IMG/VR virus record: IMGVR_UViG_3300029781_000008 | Coordinates: 1-26,007 of that record | Strand: one strand, 5' to 3' | Origin: a virus | DNA length: 26,007 nt | Part shown: positions 1 through 16,462 of the stretch, piece after piece | Layout of the letters: each line of letters starts with the position of its first letter | Position numbering within the stretch: the stretch's first letter is position 1 | Translations under genes and position numbers: made by a program | The notes under the pieces: generated by a model | Told to the model about the DNA's origin: nothing | The model's input: only the letters and a program-made list of their open reading frames with translations | The model's database searches: none

Positions 1-7
1 TGGATAA

Positions 8-15
8 TTATATAA
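8..15 (+). promoter_or_regulatory. Archaeal TATA box for the structural operon
   Basis: TTATATAA ends 23 nt before ATG 39, consistent with a leaderless or short-leader transcript. Confidence 0.6.
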
Positions 16-38
16 GAGAAATAAATTCACGGTCAATT

Positions 39-326
39 ATGGGAATCGGTAAGGTTGTTTCCCGGGCGGTCTCTCTTGTAAAGAGGGGCCGGGCGAAGGT
101 CCTGATGGTCATCGCTACCAGCGTGACCTTCCTTGTATCGAATGCGAGCGCAGCATCGATCAACTGGACGGAGATCAGCGACATCATCAATGGTGTCGCT
201 ACCAATCTGTTCCCGGCGTTCATAACGCTCATCACGGCTGCGGTCCCGATCATCATCGTGGTCTCAGTCGTGAGCTTCATCGTGATGTTCCTGGACAAGA
301 TCCTTGGCATGCTCAAGATGCGTTGA
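39..326 (+). CDS. Putative major coat protein, inovirus pVIII-like architecture (95 aa precursor, ~57 aa mature)
   Basis: Basic N-region, hydrophobic core and A-S-A cleavage motif, then acidic amphipathic helix (INWTEISDIINGV), TM (FITLITAAVPIIIVVSVVSFIVMF) and basic tail (KILGMLKMR). First gene after the TATA box. Confidence 0.65.
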   Translation: MGIGKVVSRAVSLVKRGRAKVLMVIATSVTFLVSNASAASINWTEISDIINGVATNLFPAFITLITAAVPIIIVVSVVSFIVMFLDKILGMLKMR

Positions 327-673
327 TGATCTCAAAAACCACACTTTTTTTCCTGATTGTTTGCCTGGTGTCGACTTCTACTATTATGTCCTCATCTGCT
401 CTTTCAATAAAGTTTCAGGACCAGAGTATGGCAGGGGCACAGAGTATCAATGTATACAGTATTGTCAATGGGACGCATCTCTATTCCGGGAATACAACAT
501 CTCAATTTACCACTGATGAAAGCGTTATAATCGCGATATCTCCGGAAAGGACTGATTATATCCGGAACCCATCTGCATTTCTCACAAACGTCAGTTCGTT
601 TGTGAGCGGGAACATGCTCGAAATTATGGTTCTTTGCTTTATTGCGGGAATGTTTCTTTTTTGGAGGAGATAA
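323..673 (+). CDS. Small secreted, C-terminally anchored virion/surface protein (116 aa), paralog of the C-terminal domain of the next gene
   Basis: Signal peptide; C-terminal TM plus WRR; TGA/ATG overlap with the coat gene; aligns by eye with the last ~90 aa of 676-1455. Confidence 0.8.
   Translation: MMISKTTLFFLIVCLVSTSTIMSSSALSIKFQDQSMAGAQSINVYSIVNGTHLYSGNTTSQFTTDESVIIAISPERTDYIRNPSAFLTNVSSFVSGNMLEIMVLCFIAGMFLFWRR
581..606. repeat. 26-bp interrupted palindrome, copy 1 (CTCACAAACG-TCAGTT-CGTTTGTGAG)
   Basis: Perfect 10-bp inverted arms around a 6-bp spacer; identical to 1360-1385. Confidence 0.97.
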
Positions 674-675
674 GA

Positions 676-1455
676 ATGATTTCATGGATAGGTCGCGTAT
701 TCCTAGTATTCTGCCTGGTAGTCACTTTAGTCCAAGGTAACATTAATAATGGTGATTTTGAAACCGGCGATCTTTCATCCTGGTATTACTCCGGTATGAT
801 TGAAACAAGCAGCCAATCTCATACGGGCAACTATGCGTGTTATTTTGAGGATACAGGACCTGCAACACTTAACCAAAGTGTCGATTTTTCTGGATTTGAT
901 GAACTGCATATCTGGATCTATGCTGATAATATCGGAAATGGAAATTGCATTATCCAAATAGACGGTAACAACATTGATACAATTGCGCCTTCTACTCCTT
1001 CTATTTATGAAGAACGAATAATTAACATATCGTTATATAATGGTCTTCATATTTTACAGTTTTATGGAGATGATGGCCAGTTCTTTATCCTGGATGATAT
1101 TATACTGGGATCAACGCCCACACCGACACCGACCACAACAACACCCACTCAAACACCTACAACAACACCAACAGCGAGCCTATATGTTCAAATGATTGAC
1201 AAAAGCATTGCCGGCCCGCAAAAAATAGATGCTTTCTCATTAACCAACGGAACTTACCTTTTTACGGCGGACACAAGCTCCGAATTTGGATTATATGAAA
1301 GTATAATCATCTACATTTCCCCGGATCCTATTGATTATGCTAGAAACCCTCATGCACTCCTCACAAACGTCAGTTCGTTTGTGAGTAGTAACATCCTGGA
1401 AATCTTTATCCTCTGCTTTATCGGGGGCTTATTCATATTCGGACGGAGGCGCTAG
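676..1455 (+). CDS. Anchored surface protein with N-terminal carbohydrate-binding-like (CBM4/9/CenC-like) domain, Thr/Pro linker and shared anchor domain (259 aa; start moved from 634 to ATG 676)
   Basis: Signal peptide; NGDFETGDLSSW motif; TPTPTPTTTTPTQTPTTTPT linker; C-terminal TM plus RRR; GGAGGAG upstream of ATG 676. Confidence 0.75.
   Translation: MISWIGRVFLVFCLVVTLVQGNINNGDFETGDLSSWYYSGMIETSSQSHTGNYACYFEDTGPATLNQSVDFSGFDELHIWIYADNIGNGNCIIQIDGNNIDTIAPSTPSIYEERIINISLYNGLHILQFYGDDGQFFILDDIILGSTPTPTPTTTTPTQTPTTTPTASLYVQMIDKSIAGPQKIDAFSLTNGTYLFTADTSSEFGLYESIIIYISPDPIDYARNPHALLTNVSSFVSSNILEIFILCFIGGLFIFGRRR
1114..1173 (+). repeat. Thr/Pro low-complexity linker coding sequence
   Basis: ACN/CCN-rich run encoding TPTPTPTTTTPTQTPTTTPT. 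Confidence 0.9.
1360..1385. repeat. 26-bp interrupted palindrome, copy 2
   Basis: Exact match to 581-606 in the same orientation and at the same codon position (LTNVSSFVS). Confidence 0.97.
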
Positions 1456-1457
1456 AA

Positions 1458-3494
1458 ATGAAGAGAATCATCGTATTAGCTTGCGTTATCTTATGTTTAC
1501 TGATCCCATCGGTACTTGCATCCAACTCCTCGTGTTTTGACATTAACCAGGAACAATCGGTTGTCAAAAAGTCATATATTACATCATATTCCGGTGTGGG
1601 CGACACAATGGGGAAACCCAACGTTTTCTATGTCCCAAGTATTGAAAAATGGGGAAAGATCCAGATTTACACGTTCAACGCAGCAAAACCCTACGCATTA
1701 AGTGGAAGCCCCGGACATGAAGAACAAGTCACCGTAAAAGATGGAGCGACAATAATTGCTCATGGATTTATTGGTTATTTGGACAATGGGCCCTCCTCGA
1801 TAACGATATACATGTATTTTGATGATTGGAATTCAACAGGGTTGACAGGAAACAAAGCCCTGACACTTGATTATACAAATGATATACTAGGGCTCTCTTT
1901 TGTCTATGCAGGAGCACATAATTATGGAAATGATCTGGGTTATCCCTTCATTTGCGCAGGGGGTTCAAATGCAAGACCCGCAATGGTAGGGACTTCCTTT
2001 GATCAAACTGTTTATGCTTCTATTTTCCACAATGAGCTATGCCATATTAGTCCAATAACCGGATCCGTGCATATCGACTTAACCCGATATTCCTATACAT
2101 CAAGACTAGCGGTATTCGCTGATGGAACCCAATGGTTTAATGAAAGCAGTAATACTGATTTAGACATCACGATCTTTGGATCCGTTGTTAAAGCGCATCT
2201 TTGGAATGCTGATTTAACCTATTATAAAGTCTTTGATATCTCACCAGGAGTGACCCCCACTCCAACCACTATAACCCCAACTGAAACGCCCACTCCAGCC
2301 CCTCAATTCTGTGGTTACTGGTCATTTGCAGTCAATTCAAGTAATATCATAAGGAACCAGTGGGTAAAAGGAACCCTAACAGAAACAGACCCGAGTGATA
2401 ATTTCCACAAGATCGATTGGTTCTGGATAACAACCTCTGGCGAAGAGGTAATGAAATATTCTTATGTGAACGACCCGGGATTCTTCGGCCTCGGGGCGGG
2501 CTGGGTAAGTGTCGATCCGATTCTTGGGACTGCAACATCCTCAAGTGTCGCAGCAGCAAAGGAAAACGATATTCAAATCCCCTACACCGGAAAACAATGG
2601 ATCCGGACAAAAATTTACAGGGATCAATCATTAATTCCCCTACTATATCACGATTATCAACTAATTTGCACGATGGACCAGGTTGTTTATGTCAGTGAGT
2701 CAACTCAGGGAACTAACACCCTAAACGTAAACGTGATTGATTCACTGACACGGGCGCAAATCGCAGGCGTAACGGTAAACGCTCAAAACAAGCTCACCGG
2801 CGAATGGCAAAACAAATCGACCCCGACCGGGGGAGCGATCCAATTCAATGTTATTCCAGGGAATGTTTACCGGTTCCTGGTGAACAATCCCCCATGGGAG
2901 CTGTATGATAAGGAATACACGATCCCCAACCCCCCGGGACTCTATGAAATCCTTTTGCGCCGGCCATTACCCGACACACCAGGGAAAAGTTGGATCCAGT
3001 TCACGGTTAAGGACGCAAGCACTACTCTTAACCTAAGGGCGGCCTCCATTACCCTTTCCGATGGACAAAGCAAAACGACACTTCCAAGCGGATACCAGGA
3101 CTTCCAGGTAAATAATAGCCAAGAATATTATTTCACGGTTTCAAAACAGGGTTATACATCCGCAACCGGTTCATTCAATATATCGGTCAATACCGAAAAA
3201 CTGGTTTATTTATATCCAAAAGTCCCGACCACAACCGCAACAACCGTCCCGGGATGGACTCAAACCCCGACCCCCGTTCAGACGTATCCAAATGGGACCC
3301 CGATTGACGTAACAACATCACCAACAGGTCTAGCCACTCTGGATGTTGTCCAGCGCCAGGCAAAAGTCAACGAGGGGATGGATATCTGGTATGAAGGATT
3401 CCCCATGCTGGCCCAATTGCTCTTTCTTTGCGCCATCATGGGCGCGTTTGGACTTATGGCATCATCGATGGGTGGCCGGAGGAAAAGCCGTTGA
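1458..3494 (+). CDS. Large adhesin/spike-like virion protein (678 aa), positional analog of inovirus pIII
   Basis: Signal peptide; two Thr/Pro linkers; two carboxypeptidase-regulatory/PEGA-like beta-sandwich repeats (LNVNVIDSLTRAQIAGVTV; IQFTVKDASTTLNLRAASITL...VSKQGY); C-terminal TM plus basic tail. Confidence 0.75.
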   Translation: MKRIIVLACVILCLLIPSVLASNSSCFDINQEQSVVKKSYITSYSGVGDTMGKPNVFYVPSIEKWGKIQIYTFNAAKPYALSGSPGHEEQVTVKDGATIIAHGFIGYLDNGPSSITIYMYFDDWNSTGLTGNKALTLDYTNDILGLSFVYAGAHNYGNDLGYPFICAGGSNARPAMVGTSFDQTVYASIFHNELCHISPITGSVHIDLTRYSYTSRLAVFADGTQWFNESSNTDLDITIFGSVVKAHLWNADLTYYKVFDISPGVTPTPTTITPTETPTPAPQFCGYWSFAVNSSNIIRNQWVKGTLTETDPSDNFHKIDWFWITTSGEEVMKYSYVNDPGFFGLGAGWVSVDPILGTATSSSVAAAKENDIQIPYTGKQWIRTKIYRDQSLIPLLYHDYQLICTMDQVVYVSESTQGTNTLNVNVIDSLTRAQIAGVTVNAQNKLTGEWQNKSTPTGGAIQFNVIPGNVYRFLVNNPPWELYDKEYTIPNPPGLYEILLRRPLPDTPGKSWIQFTVKDASTTLNLRAASITLSDGQSKTTLPSGYQDFQVNNSQEYYFTVSKQGYTSATGSFNISVNTEKLVYLYPKVPTTTATTVPGWTQTPTPVQTYPNGTPIDVTTSPTGLATLDVVQRQAKVNEGMDIWYEGFPMLAQLLFLCAIMGAFGLMASSMGGRRKSR

Positions 3495-4426
3495 GACCAA
3501 TTGAGATCCTCCCACTCTTAATGCTCCTGGTCCTCTTCATCGTCCCGGTCCATGCCGAGGACCTGTCTGCAATCAACCCAAACGTCGCACAAATGAAACT
3601 ATTTGTGGACCATGGGTCGTTCACCTATCGGGCTGCGGATGATGGATATCTCATCAGCAGGGTTGCCTGGATGGTCCTTCCTGGAGAGTCCGTCGACTTC
3701 ATACTCGAGTACAACGATGGGACAACCTCAACAGGATATATCCATACATCGACTACGTTCCTGGTCTGGAAGGACTGCTCTCTCTCCCTCAATGGCCAAA
3801 CGCAGACTTTATCAGGTGCATGGTTACCGGGGACTTACGATTATTATTATGTTTGCTATGCTGTTTCAAATGCGACACAGTCCCCATCATATTATCTCGT
3901 TCTGGTCAAGGACAGCGTCGGATTCGGCGGTGACCAGCCAAATTACGCGAATCCAAACCAGCCCCTGAAAGGGGATATCATCTTCAAGAAGGCCCTCTCG
4001 GCCTCTCCGAGCGATAACCCTATCATCCAGGTCACGGAGGAAACTGAATCACTGTCAGGGACAACCCTGGTCCTGGCCACGCTCGATGAGCTCTTTGCCA
4101 CGCAGGAAATGCATGAGAACATCAGCGGGAACTTCCTGTCCTGGATTATCTCCATCGGAGGGCAAGTATTCGGGATGCTCTCGTTTATTTGGGGGCTCTT
4201 TTACTTTCTATTTATCGAGAATTTCATGCTGACGTTCCTCTGTATTGAGATGGGGATTCTGGCCTACCGGCTCAATACTGCGAGGGACGTATTCATGGCC
4301 TTTTCCTTGATTCTCTCGGACAACGAGCGCCTTCTCCGGGGACTCGTCAGGTTTATTCAGCTGCTTGTGGATCTCGTGTGGAATATCATCAATGTTGTTA
4401 ACCCGATGAGGTGGCTGCGCCCATGA
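3491..4426 (+). CDS. Secreted ectodomain plus multi-helix hydrophobic C-terminus (311 aa; pVI-like position); TTG start
   Basis: TTGA overlap with the adhesin stop; signal peptide ending VHA; about three hydrophobic/amphipathic helices at the C-terminus. Confidence 0.7.
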   Translation: MRPIEILPLLMLLVLFIVPVHAEDLSAINPNVAQMKLFVDHGSFTYRAADDGYLISRVAWMVLPGESVDFILEYNDGTTSTGYIHTSTTFLVWKDCSLSLNGQTQTLSGAWLPGTYDYYYVCYAVSNATQSPSYYLVLVKDSVGFGGDQPNYANPNQPLKGDIIFKKALSASPSDNPIIQVTEETESLSGTTLVLATLDELFATQEMHENISGNFLSWIISIGGQVFGMLSFIWGLFYFLFIENFMLTFLCIEMGILAYRLNTARDVFMAFSLILSDNERLLRGLVRFIQLLVDLVWNIINVVNPMRWLRP

Positions 4427-4569
4427 TGAAAAAGGGGGTCTTTAGAAGCCTCTTCGGCCTGGCACTCTATGACCATGGTGAACGGGTCTACCTGGCCAGG
4501 GGAGAGTCTCCCCTGGTGGTCCTGCGGAAAATCGCACTATTCATCGCACAGAAATACCTCGGAGGCTGA
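4423..4569 (+). CDS. Small basic hypothetical protein (48 aa, MMKKGVFRSLFG...)
   Basis: Not in the ORF track; ATGA overlap with the upstream stop; fills the gap and contains the GGAGG for 4572. Confidence 0.6.
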   Translation: MMKKGVFRSLFGLALYDHGERVYLARGESPLVVLRKIALFIAQKYLGG

Positions 4570-4571
4570 TT

Positions 4572-4979
4572 ATGGGTCTTTTTGCAAAGTGGTTCCGGCC
4601 GAAACGTAATTTCCTAATCTGGTCACCGAAAATCAAGCAGTTCGAGCTCCAGAAACTCTCCTGGAGGCCAGGACTCGCCGAGGACACCTTTAACAAGCGT
4701 GCCTGGGAGTTGGCCCCGGACCTGGTGACGTATTCACTCAAGTTCGGTCGGAAAGTCATTAATTTCATCATCCTCGACGAGGAGCGGGGCGTTGGCCTGA
4801 ACGTCGAGCCTGATGAAGGCTTGCTAAAGCTGAAAACTAACACGGAGCTCTCCGGGCAGCTCATAGATGCCGTCATGATCACCACAGCCTACCAGCTCAG
4901 CCCAAGCAACAAAAAGGTCATAATCGCGGCTATTGTTGGATTGATGCTAGGCCTGCTCTTTGGGATGGGGATGCACTGA
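4572..4979 (+). CDS. Membrane protein with single C-terminal TM (135 aa)
   Basis: GGAGG RBS; TM VIIAAIVGLMLGLLFGMG. Confidence 0.8.
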   Translation: MGLFAKWFRPKRNFLIWSPKIKQFELQKLSWRPGLAEDTFNKRAWELAPDLVTYSLKFGRKVINFIILDEERGVGLNVEPDEGLLKLKTNTELSGQLIDAVMITTAYQLSPSNKKVIIAAIVGLMLGLLFGMGMH

Positions 4980-5401
4980 TGGCAGCAGTTGAAACCAGGG
5001 AGTCGATTGTTGTCCGACCTGGCGAAGACCGGGCCCTTACGAGGGTTGCACAGTTTGCGCCTGAGGTCCTGCGCCATAATGCAATCCTCAGGCTCATGGA
5101 AGGGCGGGCGACGCTGTCCCGGATTTCGAAAGAACAAATTATTCTGGAGTCATTAGTAGACTCAGCCGAGGAACTCGGCTATAAGCTGCCCGCCACAAAG
5201 GTCCTCATCCGCTCGGCTCGTGAGCTCTCCCCTGGCCTGGACGGGCTCGGGCGGGGCGAGGCGGTAAAGTGTTTGACGCCAACCCCGGCAAACGTCGGTA
5301 TGTTCCCTGCCAGCGCGTTTGCCCAGGAGGAGAAACCTGGGCTTTGGGCCAGGTTCCTGGCATTCGTGACCGGGGCCAGAAACAAGGATGGAGGTTCTTA
5401 A
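4979..5401 (+). CDS. Hypothetical protein of the assembly block (140 aa)
   Basis: TGATG overlap; C-terminal amphipathic helix LWARFLAFVTG. Confidence 0.75.
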   Translation: MAAVETRESIVVRPGEDRALTRVAQFAPEVLRHNAILRLMEGRATLSRISKEQIILESLVDSAEELGYKLPATKVLIRSARELSPGLDGLGRGEAVKCLTPTPANVGMFPASAFAQEEKPGLWARFLAFVTGARNKDGGS

Positions 5402-5402
5402 A

Positions 5403-5555
5403 ATGGACTACTTGACAATTTGGGCAACGGATTGTTTCAAATTTGGGCTCTTGATGCTCGTGATTGGGATTGGGTGCGGGATGCTCATTGGGTATGGCCT
5501 CGGAAAACTAATCGCTCCGCAAAGGCCCGATGCAGTGATGAGCTATGCCCGTTAG
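5403..5555 (+). CDS. Small single-TM protein (50 aa, MDYLTIWATD...)
   Basis: Not in the ORF track; GGAGG upstream; Gly-rich TM LLMLVIGIGCGMLIGYGLG. Confidence 0.65.
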   Translation: MDYLTIWATDCFKFGLLMLVIGIGCGMLIGYGLGKLIAPQRPDAVMSYAR

Positions 5556-5922
5556 AGATGGACTGAGCAGCCGGCTGTCCGGGATCCCGTCCCTGGTCGC
5601 ATTCGCCATGGTGACCAGGATCCAAAAGGCTGACATGACAATCTCCGCGAGGACAAATCTCGCGGTAAAGCTGTTCTCGCTACTTTGGGCCAAGTATCGA
5701 GATGATAAGGGGGTCTCCGCGACCCTGGATGAGATTGGTCTTGACCTACGCAATCTGAGGGAGAACTATGAAAATGTCGTTGATTTCGAGACATGGGCCG
5801 CCGAAAAACAGTCCCAATTCAACCAGTTCTTGGATGGGATCGAATATCGGCTTGACCGGGTGGTTGTGCTCACGAAGATCATAGACACCGCGAGCCTGCG
5901 GGACATGGCGGTGCCGGAATGA
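5545..5922 (+). CDS. Hypothetical helical protein (125 aa; start uncertain)
   Basis: Fills the operon gap; stop overlaps the ATPase start. Confidence 0.65.
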   Translation: MPVRDGLSSRLSGIPSLVAFAMVTRIQKADMTISARTNLAVKLFSLLWAKYRDDKGVSATLDEIGLDLRNLRENYENVVDFETWAAEKQSQFNQFLDGIEYRLDRVVVLTKIIDTASLRDMAVPE

Positions 5923-6848
5923 TGGGCGAGATTCTATATGAAGAAGAGCCCATCGAGGAGCCGGTCCAGCTGGATCCCGATGAGGACGAGGAGAAAAAGA
6001 TATATTCGCTCTTTGAGCGTGATTTCCTGAAAAAGCCTGGAGAGCACCTCCTTGGGATCGGGATTACCGGGTCCGGAAAAACCCAAAAGAGTTACTGGTT
6101 TGCTAAGCAGCTGTTGCCACATGAGACGCTCGTTTGGTTTGACTGCGGCAAATCGTCAAACTTCGGGCGGAGCGCAGAGATTGGGCCCCTCTTCACATTC
6201 GGGGTCCCGGTCAATATTATCATCCCGATGGGTGTAGATATCCAGGTTGTCGGGTCCCCGGTCCCGGTGACAATTCTCAAAACACCACGACCCGCTGATG
6301 TATGGGACCTCTGCGAGGCGGGGAAAATCAATATTGTGGCGATAAACCGGTTTTTCCTGGACCCGGATCTCTATGCAAAATACACCGCCGAAGTGTTCCG
6401 GCAACTGATTATCCTCTCCCAAAACGCGAAGGACCGGCTCCGGAGACTCCTCCCAATGGCAATTTTTCACGATGAGTTCCAGGATGTTTCCCCGGGCGTG
6501 ACGATGGCCCTTTCTCCATCGCACCTATACTCGGCAAAAATTGTCGCGTGGAACATTAACAAGCTCAGGTCAATCGGAGTCAGGGTCTGTGCATTTACGC
6601 AAAAATATACCTTTATTTATCCTAATACCAGGGCAGCTTTCAGCTGGATCCTCTGTTGCAGGGGTGCATATTTTGAGCGGGAGGACCCGGACCTGGCAGC
6701 CTTCAACCGCTTGTACAAGCACCTGGATGTGTTCCAAGCGATCCTGTGGTTCCCCAAGCGGCTATTCAAGCATCGCTGGCGGTTCAGGCTCTACCAGGGG
6801 CCTCCTGGCCTGGTCATCTCGCATGAAGGGGTCCTGACAAACGTTTGA
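5919..6848 (+). CDS. FtsK/HerA-superfamily P-loop ATPase (putative genome packaging/extrusion motor), no TM
   Basis: Walker A GITGSGKT (6060-6083), Walker B AIFHDE (DE at 6471-6476), Arg finger KLRSIG, sensor FTQ. Confidence 0.85.
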   Translation: MMGEILYEEEPIEEPVQLDPDEDEEKKIYSLFERDFLKKPGEHLLGIGITGSGKTQKSYWFAKQLLPHETLVWFDCGKSSNFGRSAEIGPLFTFGVPVNIIIPMGVDIQVVGSPVPVTILKTPRPADVWDLCEAGKINIVAINRFFLDPDLYAKYTAEVFRQLIILSQNAKDRLRRLLPMAIFHDEFQDVSPGVTMALSPSHLYSAKIVAWNINKLRSIGVRVCAFTQKYTFIYPNTRAAFSWILCCRGAYFEREDPDLAAFNRLYKHLDVFQAILWFPKRLFKHRWRFRLYQGPPGLVISHEGVLTNV

Positions 6849-7093
6849 CCAGGTCCCGGTCAGGGGTCCTGGCCAGGATCCTGTATGGTCTCCCCGCACT
6901 CAGTACACCACCACCCGACCGGCACGAACCGGCCACGTGCACCACCTACCCGGACATATGCCCTGGTCATGGGTGCACCACATTTCGGGTGGGGACATCG
7001 CGTAGCTCTCAGGCGGGGCATGGTATGTATACATTACCCCTGGAAAAGAAAAGCATTTTGCGCTTTGATTGCTCAAGGAGAATTCATACCTGA
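6845..7093 (+). CDS. Small Cys/His-containing hypothetical protein (82 aa, TTG start)
   Basis: TTGA overlap with the ATPase stop matches the coupling pattern of the operon; the competing frame 6885-7151 cannot be excluded. Confidence 0.4.
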   Translation: MTRSRSGVLARILYGLPALSTPPPDRHEPATCTTYPDICPGHGCTTFRVGTSRSSQAGHGMYTLPLEKKSILRFDCSRRIHT

Positions 7094-7175
7094 ACATGGC
7101 TTTAAACCCTGGCACTATAACCTCTTCCCCGGCGTGGTGAACCAGGCTTAAGAGCCACGACAACAATCCTTTTAC

Positions 7176-8423: not shown

Positions 8424-8430
8424 TACTATT

Positions 8431-9362: not shown

Positions 9363-9676
9363 TGCCCCTTGCTCAGCAGGCCCCTATCACCGACGAACCG
9401 CCCGCCAAACAGAAAGCCTATCCAAAATTCAGCCACCTTTTCCTGAACCTAAAACTCCCTGGGAGATGGATCCGCATCGACCAGATCACCAGTGTCAGGA
9501 TTGAGCGCATAGACCCGGACGGTCCCCGGCCATCGTTCTACCGTGTGAGGGTGAACGAGTATGATACCATCGATGAGGTCCCTACCATTGAAGAAGCCGA
9601 GGCCATTGCCGAGCGGGTCATGTTTGCCGTGTCCACCCGGCTGACCGCGGTCTTGGGATCCTGGAGGAGGTCCTGA
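9359..9676 (+). CDS. Hypothetical protein (105 aa)
   Basis: ATGA overlap with the upstream stop; ordered alpha/beta-like sequence. Confidence 0.7.
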   Translation: MMPLAQQAPITDEPPAKQKAYPKFSHLFLNLKLPGRWIRIDQITSVRIERIDPDGPRPSFYRVRVNEYDTIDEVPTIEEAEAIAERVMFAVSTRLTAVLGSWRRS

Positions 9677-10599
9677 TGTCCCATCATGATATCTTCCGGT
9701 GCAACTACCCGCCCTGCGAAAAGGAGTCAGAAGAGCCCTTCCGGGACGGGTGGGTCCATTTCAACTGCCTGGATGATGGGAATTCCCTCATGCTCGGAGA
9801 CCGGACCCTCCTCGCAAACCTGGAGGACACGCACTTCTGCTCTGTCAAGTGTCTCATGCATTACTTGAACGGCTTCCTCAAGAGCGCAAGCCCGCTCTTG
9901 AGCAAAGCGGTGAATAACACCATCCCGAAGCTGGGCCGAGGGTCCAGGGCAGAATACAATTGGATCAAGGACTGCCCTACTCTTACCCAATGCTTGTCCG
10001 GATTCAGGGACCGGTATCCTGGCAGGAAGAACGTAACAGACTCAGACCTCTCTGCTATCTGGAACCACTATCACCCGGACCAGGAAGAGGTTATCGAGGA
10101 GGGATCGGACTACTCAGACAAGGAACTGGCAGTCCTATATGCGCATGAATCCCATCGGGATGCATGGGCAGCCTATACCTCTGCATTCCCAGGCTCTAAG
10201 CGGAAGCGGTCCTCAATTAAGATCAAGTGGCTCAGGAATTGGGAGTCCACCGAAGGGAAGCGTCGAGCAAAAGAACTCAGGTCCAGGGAGAGTGTCCAGG
10301 AGAATGAAACCCCGCCAAGCTCTCAAAACATCGACGAACCGGCGCCAAATCAAGGAGCGCCACATCAAGAATCCTCGGGACTCTTTGTTGGCGCAAAGGT
10401 TCTCCAGGTCAAAGGAAAAAACAGGGCATACGGGGTTGGAGAAGTCCTGGAAATCCGCATGAATGGCGATGTGGTCGCCCAATTCTACGGGTCCAGGAAG
10501 GTCCTGTCCCAGGACCATTTTGAACTCTATGTCCCTGGAAGGGCAACATCACAGGGAACCGCAGACCAGGCAGCTACTGCGGGAGGTGGACAATCGTGA
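9676..10599 (+). CDS. Multidomain protein: TRASH/MYM-like Zn finger, helical Myb/SANT-like region, C-terminal Tudor/KOW-like barrel (307 aa)
   Basis: CNYPPC...HFCSVKC; YSDKELAVL...KRKRSSIKIKWLR; LFVGAKV...YGVGEVLEI...VVAQF. GGAGG RBS and TGATG overlap. Confidence 0.7.
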   Translation: MSHHDIFRCNYPPCEKESEEPFRDGWVHFNCLDDGNSLMLGDRTLLANLEDTHFCSVKCLMHYLNGFLKSASPLLSKAVNNTIPKLGRGSRAEYNWIKDCPTLTQCLSGFRDRYPGRKNVTDSDLSAIWNHYHPDQEEVIEEGSDYSDKELAVLYAHESHRDAWAAYTSAFPGSKRKRSSIKIKWLRNWESTEGKRRAKELRSRESVQENETPPSSQNIDEPAPNQGAPHQESSGLFVGAKVLQVKGKNRAYGVGEVLEIRMNGDVVAQFYGSRKVLSQDHFELYVPGRATSQGTADQAATAGGGQS

Positions 10600-10946
10600 A
10601 GAGAATTGCGGTTTGCCCCCCGGAGGATATTTGCCCTGTCTGCGGATGCTCAGACCTGGTCCTGCACTGGAACAAGACATATAAAAGGTACAATTGGGAG
10701 TGCCAGAAAGAGAACCATTTCTACATTCCAGCGGAGACTGTTGAAATCAACCCTATTTTGCTGCCCGCCGAGGAGGACCTCGTCGGGATCACTGCTGACA
10801 GCCGATGCTGGACATGCCTCCAGTTCTACCGGTGCCGGCCGAGGATCTCCGGCCTTCCAGGGGTCACCCTGGAGAAATGCGAGGGATATATGCCTGGACT
10901 TGATGTGCGGATTGCGCCGTCTCTCAAGCTCAGGGGGCGGTCCTGA
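10596..10946 (+). CDS. Cys-rich Zn-ribbon protein (116 aa, GTG start)
   Basis: CPVCGC...WECQKENH and CWTC...C...C; GTGA overlap. Confidence 0.7.
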   Translation: MKRIAVCPPEDICPVCGCSDLVLHWNKTYKRYNWECQKENHFYIPAETVEINPILLPAEEDLVGITADSRCWTCLQFYRCRPRISGLPGVTLEKCEGYMPGLDVRIAPSLKLRGRS

Positions 10947-11050
10947 TGGAGACACTCCCCTGCAGGATCCTGGGATACCTCGACCCCTGCAAGGACTGCC
11001 CTCGGGAGGATGACGACTGTCCTTATGAGTCCGAGGAGGCCTCCTCATGA
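10946..11050 (+). CDS. Tiny acidic Cys-rich peptide (34 aa, METLPCRILGYLDPCKDCPREDDDCPYESEEASS)
   Basis: Coupled by TGATG upstream and ATGA downstream; contains the GAGGAGG RBS for 11047. Confidence 0.5.
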   Translation: METLPCRILGYLDPCKDCPREDDDCPYESEEASS

Positions 11051-11337
11051 CCACCCTCAGGGATTATACTTCCATCGAGGAGGACCTGCCTGGTGACCAC
11101 CCCGATCCCCTCCTCCAGGAGACCCTATACCGGGCAGGCCAAACGGTCTGGTGGATCCCCTCTGACGGCAGCCGTCCGGCCATCATGACCAGGACACAGC
11201 GGATGCTCCCGGCGGTCGTAAAGTCCTACAACTCGCAGCAACGGACCTGTCTCATCGAGCACCAGGACGTCACCCGGACCACATATTCTTTCCTTGTCCA
11301 GGCCTCGGAGCTCACTCGGCGGGAGATCCCGAGGTGA
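11047..11337 (+). CDS. Small SH3/Tudor-like beta-barrel protein (96 aa)
   Basis: YRAGQTVWW...LPAVVKSY...CLIEH...FLVQASEL pattern. Confidence 0.65.
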   Translation: MTTLRDYTSIEEDLPGDHPDPLLQETLYRAGQTVWWIPSDGSRPAIMTRTQRMLPAVVKSYNSQQRTCLIEHQDVTRTTYSFLVQASELTRREIPR

Positions 11338-11344
11338 CCTTGAT

Positions 11345-11704
11345 ATGGCCCTTGAGATGTGCAAAACTTATACAGACCTGGTGCATCGGATAGGCTGGTA
11401 CCTCGGGTCTGAGGTGATGCCGCAGTTCATCCGACGGATCCAGGAACATGGAACAGCCTGGTGTTATTATGGCTCCCTCCTAAGCGACGGCCGGCCAGTC
11501 GTGAGAGTTTTGCAAGCCTACAAACTGCAATCAAATGGATACGTGCTGCGGGACCGGACCTATACGAGGGATCCTGACTGGAATTGGGTGAAGACAGTCC
11601 TTGATCCGGATGAGATCTTCCGGACCGCCCTCGAGCTTAGGAATTCACTTCGGCCAGTACCCGTCCCCATGTACGCCCGGCCGGACGTACCATCGGGGGA
11701 GTGA
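11345..11704 (+). CDS. Hypothetical protein (119 aa; start moved from 11294)
   Basis: GAGGTGA RBS before ATG 11345; stop overlaps the GTG of the next gene. Confidence 0.7.
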   Translation: MALEMCKTYTDLVHRIGWYLGSEVMPQFIRRIQEHGTAWCYYGSLLSDGRPVVRVLQAYKLQSNGYVLRDRTYTRDPDWNWVKTVLDPDEIFRTALELRNSLRPVPVPMYARPDVPSGE

Positions 11705-12648
11705 CCCTGATGCTCCCCGACGGTATTATTGAGCCATCCGCTGACTCACCCATCGGTTTCACATCGGACGTTTTTACGGGCGTTTTATTCGCACGTGGAC
11801 GGGACCTCTGGATCGGCAGGATATCCGTGCTGCCCTCCAAGCAGGATCAGGGCTATTTCACCCGGCTCCTCGCGGTGCTGATGTGGTTGGGGTACCGGGT
11901 CCGGGTCGCCTACCCGTCCCAGATCATGCGCCAAATCCTGGAGCGCCGGGGGTTCAGGATGGCCAGGACTTCCTGCTCTCGGGGCTCATGTCCCTACATG
12001 GAGCTTCCCGACCCCGCAACACTCTCCACAAGAGCCAGGGGGAAATATAACGGGGCCCGCATGGAGGCCCTCTTCGCCTGCAAGAACTCCAAGAATATTT
12101 TTGATGACATGCGGAACAACGTCGAGCTCAAATCGTGCCAGGAGTACGCTGTCACCAATCATTCGAACGGCACAAGGAGACTCGGCCGGTTCCAGTTCAG
12201 GAAGCACCAGCACGAGGCGCTGCTCTTCGTGGATGGGAGTTACCGGCTCATCGTCCAGGACGGCCAGGGGACTGTACTCCTCCATAGAGTTGTCAAGGCC
12301 CGGGAGATTGATCAGCACCTGGTCAAAATGACCAGGGACACCTATCAGCGGTCCTGGCGGGCGTTTTTCCCCGGTCCCCCCAAGCAAGATGGGGGGGCAG
12401 GCAGTGACAGGACCCCCCTCGAGTACCAGATCGACCCTGCCTTGATGGTCCAGGGCATCAGCCGGGAATGCACCATGGAGATCCAGGACCTGGTCCGGGC
12501 CAGGTCCATCGGGATCCACAACGTCCCGAACAGCGGGCAGTACCTGCGGGTCCTGGTCGAACGTGATGCTCAGGGCACCTACTATGTCACCCCGGCCCCT
12601 AAGGCCAGGGATACCCCCTTGTTCCTCCAGGAGAGTGTGCCGGCATGA
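11701..12648 (+). CDS. Protein with N-terminal minimal GNAT-like acetyltransferase domain and uncharacterised C-terminus (315 aa)
   Basis: WIGRISVLPSKQDQGYFTRLL (motif A-like) and MRQILERRGF (motif B-like); GTGA overlap. Confidence 0.55.
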   Translation: MTLMLPDGIIEPSADSPIGFTSDVFTGVLFARGRDLWIGRISVLPSKQDQGYFTRLLAVLMWLGYRVRVAYPSQIMRQILERRGFRMARTSCSRGSCPYMELPDPATLSTRARGKYNGARMEALFACKNSKNIFDDMRNNVELKSCQEYAVTNHSNGTRRLGRFQFRKHQHEALLFVDGSYRLIVQDGQGTVLLHRVVKAREIDQHLVKMTRDTYQRSWRAFFPGPPKQDGGAGSDRTPLEYQIDPALMVQGISRECTMEIQDLVRARSIGIHNVPNSGQYLRVLVERDAQGTYYVTPAPKARDTPLFLQESVPA

Positions 12649-12908
12649 GCGCGTCTGCTGCACTATTTGACCACCGGATCTCGTTCCAGGACATGGACTC
12701 GATGTGCCTGCTCCATATCGCCCAGCTCCTCGAACTCCAGGCATACGGGACCCACTACGTGATGAACAGGAAGGAGAGGTTGTGCATCCGGATCGAGCGC
12801 TGGCCGGACGAAAACTGGCCTGATGGTGAAATATATGTCAGGCTCCTGGATGTACCGAAGTCACCACTATTCCGGAGGGGGTCCCCCTGCTGCATGCCAG
12901 GATCGTGA
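12645..12908 (+). CDS. Hypothetical protein (87 aa)
   Basis: ATGA overlap with the upstream gene. Confidence 0.6.
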   Translation: MSASAALFDHRISFQDMDSMCLLHIAQLLELQAYGTHYVMNRKERLCIRIERWPDENWPDGEIYVRLLDVPKSPLFRRGSPCCMPGS

Positions 12909-13060
12909 TGGAACCAGTGGAGCGTCGGGACACCCTCCTGGAGGCCTCCAAGGTGGCGATGGCGAAAGGAGACCGAATCCGGGCGAAGTGCCTCGCCAGG
13001 GACGCCCGGATTATCTGCTACCTGTACGATCTCCCGATCCCGGCAGGGGAGGCCTCGTGA
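12908..13060 (+). CDS. Small helical protein (50 aa, MEPVERRDTLLEASKVAMAKGDRIRAKC...)
   Basis: Not in the ORF track; TGATG overlap upstream and GTGA overlap with the helicase start. Confidence 0.6.
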   Translation: MEPVERRDTLLEASKVAMAKGDRIRAKCLARDARIICYLYDLPIPAGEAS

Positions 13061-15186
13061 CGAACGGGACAGGGGCCGCAGGACCGTTTTCCCCGGCAAT
13101 CGCCGATATCGTGAGGTCCGCTCCGGAGGCAACGCTGCAGATGTGGGCGGAAGCTCTGAGAAAGAGGGACATCCCGGTGCCGCCCCCGCCCTCGAGCTCG
13201 GCCGAGGAGCTCCGGGAGTGGCTGGCCACAGTCCTCCCTCAGCACTGGTCCCTCCTGCAGCAGCAGGCACCGGTTGACCAGGTTGAACACGAGCATTCCG
13301 TGCACCAGCAGATCCGGGAGATAGGGGATACCTACCAGGTCCTCAAGTACCTGGAAGATTATGGCCTGAAAATCCGGGGATACGACCTCCTCAGTGAAGA
13401 GGAGGTCCGGAAGGCATGCATGGACTACCTGCAGACCGACAAGTTCCTGCAGGCATGGGACCGGGCCCGGTCCCAGGACCGGGAGGAAGCTGATAAACAG
13501 AGCCTGGCCCGGCGCGCCATCTACGTGACCGGGAAACGACTCCGGGACCAGACTCAGCAGGCGCTGGATACCCTCCTGGAGGCTAATCAACCCCCCCACA
13601 TATTCGCCCGGGTCGGGCAGCTGATCCGGATCCAGAAAGACGAGTACGGGATCCCCTACATCCAGTACCTGGACCGGTATGGTGTCCGGCATGTCCTGGA
13701 GCGGTGCGCCGAGTTCTGGAGGACCCGCCGTGACGGGGACCATGTCGAGATCCCCCCACCGATGGACGTTGTCGAGGACCTCATGGCCCTCCCGGAGATC
13801 CCGCTACCGCCCCTCGTGGCCATCATCGAGGCGCCGGTCATCCTGGAGGATAATACCCTCCTGGACCGGCGGGGCTACGACCCGAGGACCGGGTTGTATT
13901 ATTACCCTCACCAGGGCGTCGAGGTAGCAATCCCGGACCAACCAACAGCGACGGACATCAGGGAGGCGGTTGAGTTGCTGCAGGAGATATTCTGCGATTT
14001 TCCATTTGACAGCGATGCATCGCGGGCCAACACCTTCGGGGCCCTGCTGTCAGCCGTCCTCAGGCCGATGATCCGGGGCTGCGTCCCCATGGTCCTCCTG
14101 GACAAACCGCAGGCGGGGACCGGCGCGAGCTTGATTGCAGATGTCCTCTCCATGGTTGCCTGCGGGCGGGCTGGTGCAAAAACGACCGCCCCACACGAGG
14201 AAAAAGAATGGAAGAAAACTATTACGAGCATCCTGCGGTCAGGCCAGACCGTGGTCACCGTGGACAACATCGAGGGAAAGTTGTTCAGCCCATCCCTGGC
14301 CGCCGTCCTCACCATGGAGATATGGCAGGACCGGGCCCTTGGAGGGAACGATTGGGTTACCTGCCGAAACGTGACGGTCTGGATCGGGACCGGGAACAAC
14401 ATCACCCTCGGGGGGGATATGCCCCGGCGGTGCTATTGGGTCCGGATGGACGCTGAGCATGCGAGGCCCTGGCAGCGGACCGGATACCGGCACCCGGACC
14501 TGCTGGCATGGGTCCAGCAGGAGCGAGGGAGGATCCTCTCGGCGGTCCTGTCCCTGGCAAGGGCCTGGATCCTGGCCGGCCGGCCGGGACCGAAAGCCTG
14601 TCCCCTCGTCGGTAGCTATGAGAACTGGAGGTTCACCATCGCCGGGATCCTGGAGTTCGCCGGCATCGAAGGGTTCCTCGGGAACCTGGAGGCGATGTAC
14701 GAGGAGGCTGATACCGATACTCCACAGTGGGAAATGTTCTTGGAAAAATGGTATTCTATCTGGCATGACAACCCGAAGCTCGTTGCCGAGGTGCATGAAC
14801 ACCTTCAGCGGGAGGTATCATCCACATCACCCGACTATAGCCAGGGGGACCGGCTCATCGACAGCCTCCCGGACTACCTAATGGATGCCTGGACCCGCAA
14901 AAAATCATTTACCCGGGTCCTGGGAAACGCACTCAAGTCAAGGAGTGGGCGCCTGTTCCCTAATGGACTGCGGGTCCAGCGGTTTGGGATGGAGCATAAA
15001 TTACTACTTTGGAGGATAACCAGGATGTCCGACACAACCCTACAAGGGGGGTTTGGGGTGTTAGGGGGGTCTCCCTGTACACCCCCTAAGGGCGTTTCCA
15101 GTGGAAATATAGGTACTATTGTACCTGGTGATGAGCCACCGAAACCCCCTGAACACCCCAAACCCCCCGAAGGTGATCACCCATGA
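13057..15186 (+). CDS. D5/P4-primase-associated SF3-like helicase/replication protein (709 aa; GTG start) with non-canonical Walker A
   Basis: D5_N-like GYDPRTGLYY; Walker A-like DKPQAGTGAS; Walker B VDN; motif C GTGNN; DMPRR Arg finger; GGGGAGG RBS before GTG 13057. Confidence 0.8.
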   Translation: MTNGTGAAGPFSPAIADIVRSAPEATLQMWAEALRKRDIPVPPPPSSSAEELREWLATVLPQHWSLLQQQAPVDQVEHEHSVHQQIREIGDTYQVLKYLEDYGLKIRGYDLLSEEEVRKACMDYLQTDKFLQAWDRARSQDREEADKQSLARRAIYVTGKRLRDQTQQALDTLLEANQPPHIFARVGQLIRIQKDEYGIPYIQYLDRYGVRHVLERCAEFWRTRRDGDHVEIPPPMDVVEDLMALPEIPLPPLVAIIEAPVILEDNTLLDRRGYDPRTGLYYYPHQGVEVAIPDQPTATDIREAVELLQEIFCDFPFDSDASRANTFGALLSAVLRPMIRGCVPMVLLDKPQAGTGASLIADVLSMVACGRAGAKTTAPHEEKEWKKTITSILRSGQTVVTVDNIEGKLFSPSLAAVLTMEIWQDRALGGNDWVTCRNVTVWIGTGNNITLGGDMPRRCYWVRMDAEHARPWQRTGYRHPDLLAWVQQERGRILSAVLSLARAWILAGRPGPKACPLVGSYENWRFTIAGILEFAGIEGFLGNLEAMYEEADTDTPQWEMFLEKWYSIWHDNPKLVAEVHEHLQREVSSTSPDYSQGDRLIDSLPDYLMDAWTRKKSFTRVLGNALKSRSGRLFPNGLRVQRFGMEHKLLLWRITRMSDTTLQGGFGVLGGSPCTPPKGVSSGNIGTIVPGDEPPKPPEHPKPPEGDHP
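15046..15168. repeat. Nested inverted-repeat cluster (candidate replication origin)
   Basis: Perfect 17-bp IR 15046-15062/15152-15168 enclosing TTAGGGGG/CCCCCTAA, TTTCCA-G-TGGAAA and AGGTAC-TATT-GTACCT. Confidence 0.85.
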
Positions 15187-15443
15187 CCCTGGACCCTCTC
15201 ATCCTGCAGGGAATGGGGGTGGCCACCGGGCTGGCCGGCATGGCCGCGGTCACCTCCCCGGTGGCCATCACCCGGACCAGGGCATTCGCATGCTGGATCC
15301 TGTCCAACTTCTTCCTGCTCGGGTGGGCAGCTGCAGCCGGGGAGGTCCTCCTCGGGATCCTGTATGCCATCTACCTGGCCCTCTCCACTGCAGGACTGGT
15401 CAGGTCCTGGAAGTCAACATCGAATATAGGAGGCACAACATGA
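15183..15443 (+). CDS. Small 3-TM membrane protein (86 aa; weak resemblance to PnuC/PQ-loop half-transporters)
   Basis: Three hydrophobic helices; FACWILSN motif; ATGA overlap; GGTGAT RBS. Confidence 0.65.
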   Translation: MTLDPLILQGMGVATGLAGMAAVTSPVAITRTRAFACWILSNFFLLGWAAAAGEVLLGILYAIYLALSTAGLVRSWKSTSNIGGTT

Positions 15444-15610
15444 ATTGGGGATGGAAGCAGGAGGTCGCTTTTTGGGCCTTCTTGGTAATCATGGTATTTA
15501 CTATTGTATTTTTAGTTTGGTTCCTTGGAAATTTAATGATGGATTTGTTAATTCATGCACCTATTCCTGATTTCAAAAATGTAACCTCATTATTGGAGTG
15601 TGGCACATGA
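15440..15610 (+). CDS. Small single-TM protein (56 aa, MNWGWKQEVAFW...)
   Basis: AGGAGG RBS; ATGA overlap; long hydrophobic helix. Confidence 0.6.
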   Translation: MNWGWKQEVAFWAFLVIMVFTIVFLVWFLGNLMMDLLIHAPIPDFKNVTSLLECGT

Positions 15611-15759
15611 CACCGAACGAAGTTTTCTCAAAAGTTCATTCCTGCGATAATCTCATGGAACCGAAAAAGCGGCATGTACTGAAGTCACTAGGCATCCTCC
15701 TGGTCGGTATCATCATTGGGTATGCGTTCTACTATGTCCGGTTTCGGTATCTGCTCTGA
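15607..15759 (+). CDS. Small single-TM protein (50 aa, MTPNEVFSK...)
   Basis: ATGA overlap; TM LGILLVGIIIGYAFYYV. Confidence 0.5.
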   Translation: MTPNEVFSKVHSCDNLMEPKKRHVLKSLGILLVGIIIGYAFYYVRFRYLL

Positions 15760-15791
15760 AATTATTCCCAGGAACCCCCTAGAATTTCTCC

Positions 15792-15798
15792 TTTTTTT
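15792..15798 (+). terminator. Oligo-T archaeal terminator candidate between convergent operons
   Basis: T7 run 33 nt after the last + stop. Confidence 0.4.
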
Positions 15799-15851
15799 AG
15801 TCCTGGCCATGGCTACTATAAATGCTATGTTTTGGCTCCAGGTCCTGGTCG

Positions 15852-16220
15852 TCACAACAGTGAGCTGATCACCTGGAGATTCTGTACAAATGCCTGGCTC
15901 TCGATGACCACCGGGAGGACCAGGATCAGGATCCCGATGTGGTTCCTGTAGACCTTATTGAGGCCTCCAGACACCACCAGGATCCCCACTACGAGGATGA
16001 GCATCAGCGCTGGCCATATCATTGGGTGGCTGCACAGCAGGAACTCGGGATTTATTATTGGATGCAGCCCCGAGTTTATCTCGATGCCTCCCATGGCCAG
16101 GGCCGCCCCGGTCGAGAGGATGTCTCCGAAGACGAACCACACCAGGTCCCACCGCAGGATGCGATCCATGTAGCATGCGGCACGGGTCCACATCCTGTCC
16201 TGCGCGTATGCAGTTTTCAC
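15852..16220 (-). CDS. Membrane protein, DUF5658-like (122 aa, GTG start)
   Basis: GDILSTGAALAMGGIEINS resembles the D-x-x-T/T...G..E.NP motif; three to four TMs; GTGA overlap with the RHH stop. Confidence 0.6.
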   Translation of the reverse strand: MKTAYAQDRMWTRAACYMDRILRWDLVWFVFGDILSTGAALAMGGIEINSGLHPIINPEFLLCSHPMIWPALMLILVVGILVVSGGLNKVYRNHIGILILVLPVVIESQAFVQNLQVISSLL

Positions 16221-16438
16221 GCGCTCTGCGCCCCCGCAGGGGCCGGGGCCTCCGGTGCCGTGCCGTCCGAGTCGATTTCTTCTGAATTAAGTTTTTGTAT
16301 ACGTATTCGGTAATACCGGATTCCTTCCCGTACGCAAGAGCGGATGAACGCGGAGCGGTTCCCCGGGATGCTTTCAAGGGCCGCTCTCTCAGTGGAGGTG
16401 AACTTGATTGAAATGGGCTTTCCGTATCTTTCTACCAT
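16217..16438 (-). CDS. Ribbon-helix-helix regulator (73 aa)
   Basis: KPISIKFTSTERAALESIPGNRSAFIRSCVREGI. Confidence 0.75.
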   Translation of the reverse strand: MVERYGKPISIKFTSTERAALESIPGNRSAFIRSCVREGIRYYRIRIQKLNSEEIDSDGTAPEAPAPAGAQSA

Positions 16439-16462
16439 GTCAGTACATAAAAAAGAGAATAG

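Follow-up and report, generated by a model that had tools for sequence, protein, structure and literature searches.

Elements of the pT26-2 family are integrative or episomal elements of archaea, 17-38 kb in size, in which a variable replication region lies beside a core module, i.e., a one-strand block of membrane-protein genes that ends in a gene for a HerA/VirB4/B204-like ATPase (PMC6972569). Among the module proteins, one has a carboxypeptidase-regulatory domain and another has five transmembrane (TM) helices (PMC6972569). Pleolipoviridae and “Thalassapleoviridae” (e.g., HRPV-1 and AvPV1) are non-lytic and circular (7-18 kb), often integrate at tRNA genes, and have interchangeable replication modules (PMC10919331). 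The pleolipo-like groups, including those of methanogens and Archaeoglobi, are all recognized by a VP4-like fusogen at an HHsearch probability of 100 (PMC10919331, Table S1), and the NTPase of AvPV1 is of the AAA+ type common to spindle viruses (PMC10919331). For inoviruses (Tubulavirales), the proposed families have median genome sizes of 6-9.5 kb (PMC6813254 supplement), and in the archaeal “inoviruses” described by Roux et al. 2019, whose set includes inovirus-like proviruses of Methanosarcinaceae, a pI protein with an N-terminal TM domain (TMD) is found as well as a rolling-circle replication (RCR) Rep (PMC6813254). Here, we compare these systems with an element contained in the virus record IMGVR_UViG_3300029781_000008, the whole 26,007 bp of which are referred to as the window. 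The element is a circle of 16,484 bp from a methanogenic archaeon; it belongs to a new family with eight genes in fixed order, the last of which encodes a HerA-clade ATPase, and is probably either a non-lytic virus or a self-transferring plasmid.

A circular element with a fixed eight-gene module

The window is an entire, linear IMG/VR record with a CheckV completeness estimate of 51%, and comprises two unrelated parts: the circular element (positions 1-16476) and the tail module of a head-tailed virus (16477-26007). Positions 1-16476 are matched at 99.9% identity by seven independent ENA/JGI metagenome contigs (L002, L004-L009), all of which run from position 16476 through 8 further nucleotides into window position 1. 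One of them (L004; 16,603 bp, k=119 assembly) has an exact terminal overlap of 119 bp. Read-through in seven contigs and the overlapping ends of L004 together show that the element closes into a circle of 16,484 bp. The family is sufficiently abundant for the circle to be assembled cleanly from wastewater, landfill and other metagenomes, and an identical integrase is found on 20 contigs, 17 of which are 10-20 kb in size. Positions 1-16476 are a discrete, self-contained mobile element of a methanogenic archaeon (phylum Halobacteriota). An earlier note on this DNA, made from the sequence alone, had delimited an element of about 16 kb at 1-16450; the discrete element was recovered, but its right boundary lies at 16472-16476. 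A search with ARAGORN found no tRNA in the window or the circle, and no lysis genes were found in the element. The module genes, with one full copy of the element as the frame, are as follows:

1..16476 (no strand): one full copy of the circular element, opened between the gene for a ribbon-helix-helix (RHH)-like protein and the coat gene; the left end of the window lacks 8-12 nt of the circle
39..326 (+): small membrane (“coat”) protein, 95 aa; leader ending in ASA; mature part of 57 aa that contains an NWT sequon and a single long hydrophobic helix and has a basic C-terminus
323..673 (+): small secreted protein, anchored C-terminally; start at TTG 323 (116 aa) or ATG 428 (81 aa); conserved module gene 2
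676..1455 (+): paralogue of module gene 2, 259 aa; same C-terminal anchor plus an extra N-terminal domain; this sub-lineage only; alternative start at 634
1458..3494 (+): surface adhesin/spike, 678 aa; signal peptide, poorly modelled N-domain, three immunoglobulin (Ig)/transthyretin-like domains (286-590), Thr/Pro linker, C-terminal TM anchor followed by RRKSR
3521..4426 (+): polytopic membrane protein, 301 aa; leader, extracellular domain, hydrophobic C-terminal third; conserved module gene
4423..4569 (+): 48-aa open reading frame (ORF), called on sister contigs
4572..4979 (+): tail-anchored protein (p135), 135 aa; TM residues 112-135; conserved module gene
4979..5401 (+): soluble protein (p140), 140 aa; conserved module gene
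5403..5555 (+): single-TM protein, 50 aa
5545..5922 (+): soluble protein (p125), predicted partner of the ATPase, 125 aa; always directly upstream of the ATPase gene and overlapping its start
5919..6848 (+): HerA-clade P-loop ATPase, 309 aa; no TM segment; Walker A GITGSGKT, Walker B FHDEF

Eight of these genes recur in relatives in a fixed order: coat, small anchored protein, large variable Ig-repeat adhesin, polytopic membrane protein, p135, p140, p125 and ATPase. The order is kept on the metagenome contigs L003, L024 and L025 (54-69% ATPase identity), at loci in metagenome-assembled genomes (MAGs) of Archaeoglobi, Geoglobus, Candidatus Hydrothermarchaeum and Candidatus Mnemosynella, in 19 of 401 sampled Halobacteriota genomes (~5%), and on two other IMG/VR contigs. 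McrA is encoded by nine of the ten carrier genomes tested, the exception being a genome of 1,860,815 bp, and several carrier genomes are closed single contigs that encode McrA; the link to methanogens drawn in the earlier note is thus borne out by relatives. The taxonomy of the carriers rests on MAG titles, the presence of McrA, and genome sampling at the level of phylum or class.

Copies of the module usually adjoin tRNA genes. In one relative (L046 3140-14490, at ~1.735-1.746 Mb of G069:C1, i.e., in the 1,860,815-bp mcrA-negative genome), perfect direct repeats of 44 bp lie 11.3 kb apart, one of them inside a tRNA-Glu gene. Another relative (L054, G081:C1) is a 16,415-bp contig of an mcrA-positive draft genome, in which the module wraps around the contig ends, and is probably an episome that was binned with its host. 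The replication modules vary among relatives (e.g., D5_N helicase plus HNH nuclease on L025), and replication and integration genes are swapped freely around the fixed module. Such a pattern, in which the membrane module stays the same and the genes for replication and integration are exchangeable, marks a family of mobile elements. We found no description of this family in the literature; it is widespread, apparently unnamed, and a new family of integrative archaeal elements. The broader class, archaeal integrative elements with a membrane module and a HerA-type motor, is loosely defined, and we rate the family as new within it. A separate observation concerns the 33.5-kb contig IMGVR_UViG_3300037067_016798 (L066, L067), which contains two whole modules ~18 kb apart; these could be tandem elements or two related elements that happen to be adjacent.

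The ATPase and the membrane proteins of the module

The ATPase belongs to the FtsK/HerA superfamily according to its Walker A and B motifs, arginine residues and HerA-type fold. In an alignment of 35 sequences, residues K54, D185, E186, R217, R222 and R238 are invariant, and an AlphaFold2 (AF2) model based on this alignment reached a predicted local distance difference test (pLDDT) value of 90.7. When the model was compared exhaustively with known structures, the top match was HerA (4d2i; Z 20.1, root-mean-square deviation (rmsd) 3.6, 239 residues aligned). Other HerA-like proteins and DndH gave Z 18-18.5, VirB4 17.0, STIV2 B204 16.2, TrwB 15.1, TcpA 14.0, FtsK 12.8 and the N-domain of Zot 11.6, which places Zot at rank 28, below HerA, VirB4, B204, TrwB and FtsK. 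The earlier note had called the protein an FtsK/HerA-type ATPase, in agreement with this ranking; a kinship with pI/Zot is not supported, as HerA and VirB4 are nearer. Between 9 and 21 of the 35 sequences in the family alignment have weak Pfam matches to FtsK_SpoIIIE, DUF87 and T2SSE, and Pfam Zot is matched by none of the 35 at E values up to 1. No convincing TM segment was detected in the ATPase; its single hydrophobic window (residues 88-106) lies in buried β-strands of the confident model. The 309-aa protein is a minimal, probably active HerA-clade ATPase.

Among 5.8 billion proteins, the ATPase has only 39 near relatives; an exhaustive profile search yielded 272 clusters at E≤0.001. By tblastn, only P-loop-level matches were obtained in a phage collection (E of at least 0.5) and one such match in a plasmid collection (E 0.6), and the best hits of the 35-ATPase profile among PDB sequences were a VCP-like ATPase (E 0.0025) and HerA (E 0.025). 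The best BFVD matches are packaging enzymes of the PH1, corticovirus, STIV and A32 types. These matches prompted a consideration of icosahedral, membrane-containing viruses, a candidate that was rejected: there is no jelly-roll candidate near the ATPase gene, and the module proteins are small and helical or membrane-bound.

For the ATPase and p125, a complex model scored 0.66, compared with 0.00 for the best of three controls; the mark used for such models is reached by 58 of 80 solved complexes and by 2 of 110 mismatched pairs. The runs agreed in at least 51% of contacts, with a partner pLDDT of at least 69, and the C-terminal tail of p125 was modelled against ATPase residues 285-290. In these models, p125 is predicted to bind the ATPase.

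The coat family (17 members aligned) has the conserved core INWT...P...VP...VGF, and no match to a Pfam or PHROG family was found for the coat protein. Three homologues are leaderless and begin at (V/I)NWT (L021 2063-2248, L022 2553-2765, L054 14637-14828); the remaining ones have leaders of 30-60 residues that end in ASA. A spindle-shaped virus was considered as well and rejected, as the small protein has one long hydrophobic helix, not two, and no PHROG capsid family matches, in a search that included no profile-profile comparison with the capsid proteins of SSV1 or His1. Both anchored paralogues encoded downstream of the coat gene end in a TM helix followed by RR.

The adhesin contains a CarboxypepD_reg domain (Pfam 2.5e-06), and only five homologues were found among 5.8 billion proteins. 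Its AF2 model has a pLDDT of 59.6 overall and of 70-90 for residues 280-590, and matches the transthyretin-like domain of carboxypeptidase D (Z 13.3, rmsd 1.2, 77 residues aligned). The Atlas model is poor (pLDDT 0.50), with CarboxypepD_reg proteins as its only neighbors, and comparison of the adhesin model with BFVD returned generic Ig-repeat adhesins at a template modelling score (TM-score) of ~0.1. No pleolipovirus spike is among the listed matches of either fold search, in which the N-domain (first 280 residues) was poorly modelled. Overall, the gene order and the protein features given in the earlier note, i.e., a coat with a 57-aa mature part, anchored proteins, an adhesin, a hydrophobic protein, small TM genes and the ATPase, stand as described.

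Virus-like particle or DNA-transfer machine

The described systems were represented by single sequences, namely one member of the pT26-2 family (pMEFER01, NC_013157) and one pleolipovirus (HRPV-1). If the family were a divergent pleolipovirus lineage, its genes for VP3-like and VP4-like proteins and the NTPase would have diverged past recognition. The layout would fit: both have a small membrane protein, a C-terminally anchored spike, membrane proteins and an NTPase encoded in one block, with variable replication genes around this fixed structural part, and pleolipo-like proviruses are known in methanogens and Archaeoglobi (PMC10919331). However, whereas the other groups show a VP4-like fusogen at probability 100 (PMC10919331), the spike profile gave 0.5% against HRPV-1 VP4 in hhalign, with the N-terminal 280 residues of the spike poorly modelled, and the coat profile gave 0.2% against VP3. 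The ATPase profiles aligned with VP8 at the P-loop only. Neither a VP8-type NTPase nor a VP3-like membrane protein was found, and the module profiles detected no similarity to VP3, VP4, ORF6 or VP8 in HRPV-1. Moreover, the ATPase is of the HerA clade and not, as in AvPV1, of the AAA+ type, no pleolipovirus ATPase is among the top 50 BFVD matches, and the modelled part of the spike is a string of Ig domains. A pleolipovirus descent is very unlikely.

Descent from the inovirus lineage, with parts homologous to pVIII, pIII, pVI and pI of Tubulavirales, is very unlikely as well. Its appeal lies in the gene order, in which coat, adhesin, hydrophobic protein and FtsK/HerA-superfamily ATPase mirror VIII-III-VI-I, in a lifestyle that would be chronic and integrative or episomal, and in the short coat protein with its leader, amphipathic N-part, single hydrophobic helix and basic C-terminus. 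Some homologues of the coat protein are leaderless, and the coat protein of Pf3 has no leader either. The layout fits pVIII without any Pfam or PHROG match, and short helical proteins rarely give detectable homology. The Zot N-domain does appear among the fold matches of the ATPase (Z 11.6), but at rank 28, and the absence of Pfam Zot matches among the 35 members points the same way. A pI/Zot-type ATPase with a TM domain was not found, the ATPase here being without TM and nearer to HerA than to Zot, and neither was an HUH Rep (Pfam, PHROGs), i.e., an RCR Rep. Three extra conserved genes lie between those for the hydrophobic protein and the ATPase, and the 16.5-kb genome is about twice as large as those of inoviruses, for which the family medians are 6-9.5 kb (PMC6813254 supplement). 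An N-terminal-TMD pI and an RCR Rep, both described for archaeal “inoviruses” by Roux et al. 2019 (PMC6813254), are not present here. The earlier note had read the element as a mix of inovirus and pleolipovirus blueprints. What is left of this proposal is a similar layout, which is analogous and not homologous. None of the module proteins has a match in inovirus, pleolipovirus or PHROG families, and searches of HRPV-1 and PHROGs with profiles of the coat, spike and ATPase gave nothing that would indicate kinship with pleolipoviruses. The element falls in none of the already classified virus families, as the note had anticipated.

The closest resemblance is to the pT26-2 family, which likewise consists of mid-sized integrative or episomal archaeal elements with a variable replication region beside the membrane-protein block, and in which a large PEGA/CarboxypepD_reg surface protein is also followed by a multi-TM protein. 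The hidden Markov model (HMM) of the ATPase family matches the ATPase of pMEFER01 (hmmsearch 5.9e-11, including Walker B and the motifs that follow; hhalign 89.7%). No match to pMEFER01 was found for the other module proteins beyond the PEGA/CarboxypepD_reg domain of the spike (20.6%), and of the core genes t26-5p, 6p, 7p, 11p, 13p, 14p and 15p, only the t26-14p-type ATPase has a counterpart. Further differences concern the ATPase itself (309 aa, without an insertion after Walker A, vs. 447 aa), the number of conserved genes (8 vs. 12, of which 7 are core), and the hosts, which are Methanomicrobia/Methanosarcinia-type methanogens, Archaeoglobi and Hydrothermarchaeota in the one case and Thermococcales and Methanococcales in the other. 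Because only the ATPase and the shared PEGA/CarboxypepD_reg domain match pMEFER01, the element does not belong to the pT26-2 family and is at most remotely related to it, with the same type of function. This weak ATPase match is the sole link to a described system. A match of the membrane block to a conjugative or secretion locus, which according to the earlier note would refute its reading, is neither established nor excluded.

We slightly favor the reading that the element is virus-like and forms particles that leave the cell without lysis. The alternative is an integrative plasmid that has no virion and transfers DNA by a conjugation- or secretion-like machine, in which the leader-bearing protein would be a pilin-like subunit, the polytopic protein the channel, and the HerA/VirB4-like ATPase the motor, with the pT26-2 module or Ced/Ted as functional kin. 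We consider this plasmid, together with the roles it assigns to the parts, a serious but clearly less probable alternative. The fold of the ATPase matches VirB4, TrwB and TcpA (17.0, 15.1 and 14.0) nearly as well as HerA, the family HMM finds the pMEFER01 ATPase, and the surface protein and multi-TM protein follow each other in both modules. On the other hand, the ATPase is a 309-aa protein without TM and without the N-terminal domain of VirB4, homologues of relaxase, coupling protein and VirB6/CedA were not detected (Pfam), no module protein apart from the ATPase matches pMEFER01, and the elements are small (11-17 kb) and tRNA-integrating, resembling temperate archaeal viruses.

Several observations weigh against a virus-like particle, some of which also speak for a plasmid. 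The coat, spike and membrane proteins match no PHROG or Pfam virion family, and no particle, capsid or fusogen homologue, nor any capsid-like fold, was recognized. The family is rare in IMG/VR, where a scan with the ATPase profile found only two other contigs and a single-protein scan found nothing; given this rarity, the presence of the window in a virus database probably reflects its tail module. A search of 800 sampled genomes did not reveal a host of this particular sub-lineage, with identities of 36-37% at best. The function of the pT26-2 module is not established, with DNA secretion, DNA transfer or a vesicle system as the possibilities under discussion (PMC6972569), and because the core module of these plasmids has the same layout (PMC6972569), the virus status of the element is unproven. 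We lean towards a non-lytic virus-like particle over a conjugation-like conduit, although the data do not separate the two.

If the virus-like particle is taken as the working model, the element would persist as an episome or integrate, and would replicate as double-stranded DNA by means of its helicase-like protein and host factors. The genome is most likely double-stranded, because no HUH Rep was found and a helicase-like protein is present. Together with the small membrane proteins, p125 might dock the ATPase at the cell membrane, and the ATPase might pump the DNA of the element across or into this membrane. The DNA would then exit in a membrane-derived or extruded particle that is made of the small membrane protein, carries the adhesin on its surface, and is released without lysis; DNA export and a non-lytic lifestyle are what we infer from the gene content. 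Among viruses of bacteria, Plasmaviridae (Acholeplasma virus L2) have small, circular, double-stranded DNA genomes, are temperate, and release enveloped, pleomorphic particles without lysis. More speculatively, the family could represent an unrecognized, widespread lineage of non-lytic viruses of methanogens, Archaeoglobi and Hydrothermarchaeota, i.e., a counterpart of inoviruses and plasmaviruses of independent origin. Such a lineage would have its own virion plan, built from a ~57-aa helical membrane/coat protein, an Ig-repeat spike and a minimal HerA motor, an extended reading that, plan included, we regard as tentative.

To our knowledge, methanogens outside the gut have few described viruses or plasmids, and there is a shortage of tools with which to study them. 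If the element forms particles, it would add a new virion type to the archaeal virosphere and provide a small methanogen replicon that is naturally episomal and integrates. If it encodes a transfer machine, the class defined by a pT26-2-type membrane module and a HerA motor would extend from hyperthermophiles to mesophilic methanogens. As the family is common in methanogens and several carriers are closed single contigs, the question of virus or plasmid becomes directly testable in cultivable hosts.

Integration and replication genes and the junction with a tail module

The remaining features of the element and of the window are:

7176..8423 (+): tyrosine integrase, 415 aa; C-terminal Zn ribbon; Pfam Phage_integrase PF00589 3.3e-24, Zn_ribbon_RanBP 8.8e-06; PHROG 1 integrase 1.4e-23
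8431..8898 (-): putative regulator, 155 aa; RHH-like C-terminal part; matches small ORFs on L024 and L003
11710..12648 (+): PD-(D/E)XK-type nuclease-like protein, 312 aa; precomputed PF25941 PDDEXK_16 on the identical gene of sister contigs; PHROG 2095 4.8e-07
13057..15186 (+): replication protein, 709 aa; resembles the helicase half of phage/plasmid primase-helicases
15046-15073 / 15141-15168 (no strand): inverted repeat, possible origin element; arms of 28 nt that are 89% complementary and separated by 67 nt; located within the replication gene at its 3' end
15183..15759 (+): three small membrane proteins, 86, 56 and 50 aa
15852..16438 (-): membrane protein, 113 aa, and RHH-like protein, 73 aa; divergent from the coat gene; RHH by inspection only
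16449..16476 (no strand): site shared by the element and the tailed-virus genome; 28 bp, 27/28 identical, TATA-like box; counterparts L010 1510-1537 and L004 14681-14708
16477-26007 (-): tail module of a head-tailed virus; tail-collar fibre paralogues of 243, 236 and 231 aa, and proteins of 595 aa, 186 aa (F5/8-type-C lectin-like), 435 aa and 839 aa, the last of which runs off the end

The catalytic domain of tyrosine recombinases was found in the integrase above the Pfam cut-off (PF00589), and homologues of the integrase adjoin tRNA-Thr and tRNA-Glu genes in L047 and L050. No tRNA fragment that could serve as a candidate attP was detected with Rfam in 6700-7300, upstream of the integrase gene. 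Between the ATPase and integrase genes lies a GC-rich, non-coding gap of 328 bp (6848-7175) with a palindrome at 6864-6881. The putative regulator itself has no Pfam match; an ORF on L024 that matches it has a weak precomputed hit to RHH_8. For the nuclease-like protein, the PF25941 match was not reproduced in a repeat Pfam search of the 312-aa protein.

The replication gene starts at 13057 on all sister contigs, which is the most likely start. Its product matches PHROG 10537 (1.1e-69), PHROG 19930 (“DNA polymerase/primase”; 4.5e-37) and PHROG 29234, and has structural neighbors in the Atlas at TM-scores of 0.66-0.72, namely the helicase halves of proteins whose other end is Prim-Pol, DUF3854 or RepB_primase; the nearest named feature cluster is DUF5906. 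No match to any Pfam family, D5 and helicase families included, was obtained even at E 5, nor any match among PDB sequences, and the P-loop (14125-14140) reads AGTGAS on inspection, with the lysine of Walker A missing. Searches of all ORFs of 1-16476 with Pfam and PHROGs detected no HUH Rep, although a very divergent Rep could escape them. Of the corresponding statements in the earlier note, those on the Zn-ribbon tyrosine integrase and on the lack of an HUH Rep are confirmed. The D5-type/SF3 helicase is retained as a helicase-like protein on account of the PHROG and Atlas matches, but not as a Pfam D5 family member, and the origin-like structure is real as an inverted repeat, while its role as an origin is only putative. 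Over the length of the element, GC content rises from ~40-45% in the coat and adhesin genes to 60-63% in the nuclease and helicase genes, a gradient that fits a mosaic of modules with differing histories.

To the right of the element, the window encodes tail proteins, including the three tail-collar-fibre paralogues (PHROG 5795, 5e-32 to 6e-28). Positions 16449-26007 are present without the element on nine short contigs (L010-L017, L064), and the 28-bp site at the junction is common to both genomes. The first 20 bases (AAAAAAGAGAATAGTATATA) are identical in both, and are followed by one mismatch, ATA, a second variable position, and CAA. At the second variable position, the element has A and the target variants have A or G. 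The two variable positions read T and A in all seven element contigs, and A followed by G or A in all six target contigs. The site in the window is a hybrid, in which core position 21 has T as in the element and position 25 has G as in the target, which points to a crossover within the three bases between the variable positions.

The T...G combination occurs in no k-mer of 21 or more of any observed parent, and it is because of this that we consider a real recombinant molecule somewhat more probable than a join made by the assembler. It is highly improbable that the window is a single head-tailed virus genome with a membrane module or that the join was created by the assembler alone. A single genome would suit the fact that the window constitutes one IMG/VR record (completeness estimate 51%); yet its left part closes into a circle in seven assemblies and the right part exists without the element on the nine contigs, which excludes this case. 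For an artefact, it can be said that 20 exact bases common to both parts could mislead a small-k assembly, and that the join is present on the window contig only, with the empty site and the circle both seen in other samples, but the hybrid of T at position 21 and G at position 25 makes a pure artefact unlikely. A contig with the left junction (attL) was sought via the gene to the left of the empty site, and only empty sites were found. The circle has an ATG at window positions 0-2, in frame with the first ORF of the window, and the left end of the window may be a boundary set by provirus trimming at a called gene start, which would account for the absent left junction.

The hybrid site suggests either that the two genomes recombined at a promoter they share or that this is an att-like site, distant from the integrase gene. 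The TATA-like box within the site lies ~25 nt upstream of the ATG at 16500 and ~60 nt upstream of the ATG of the coat gene, and the 28-bp site looks like a promoter common to both genomes.

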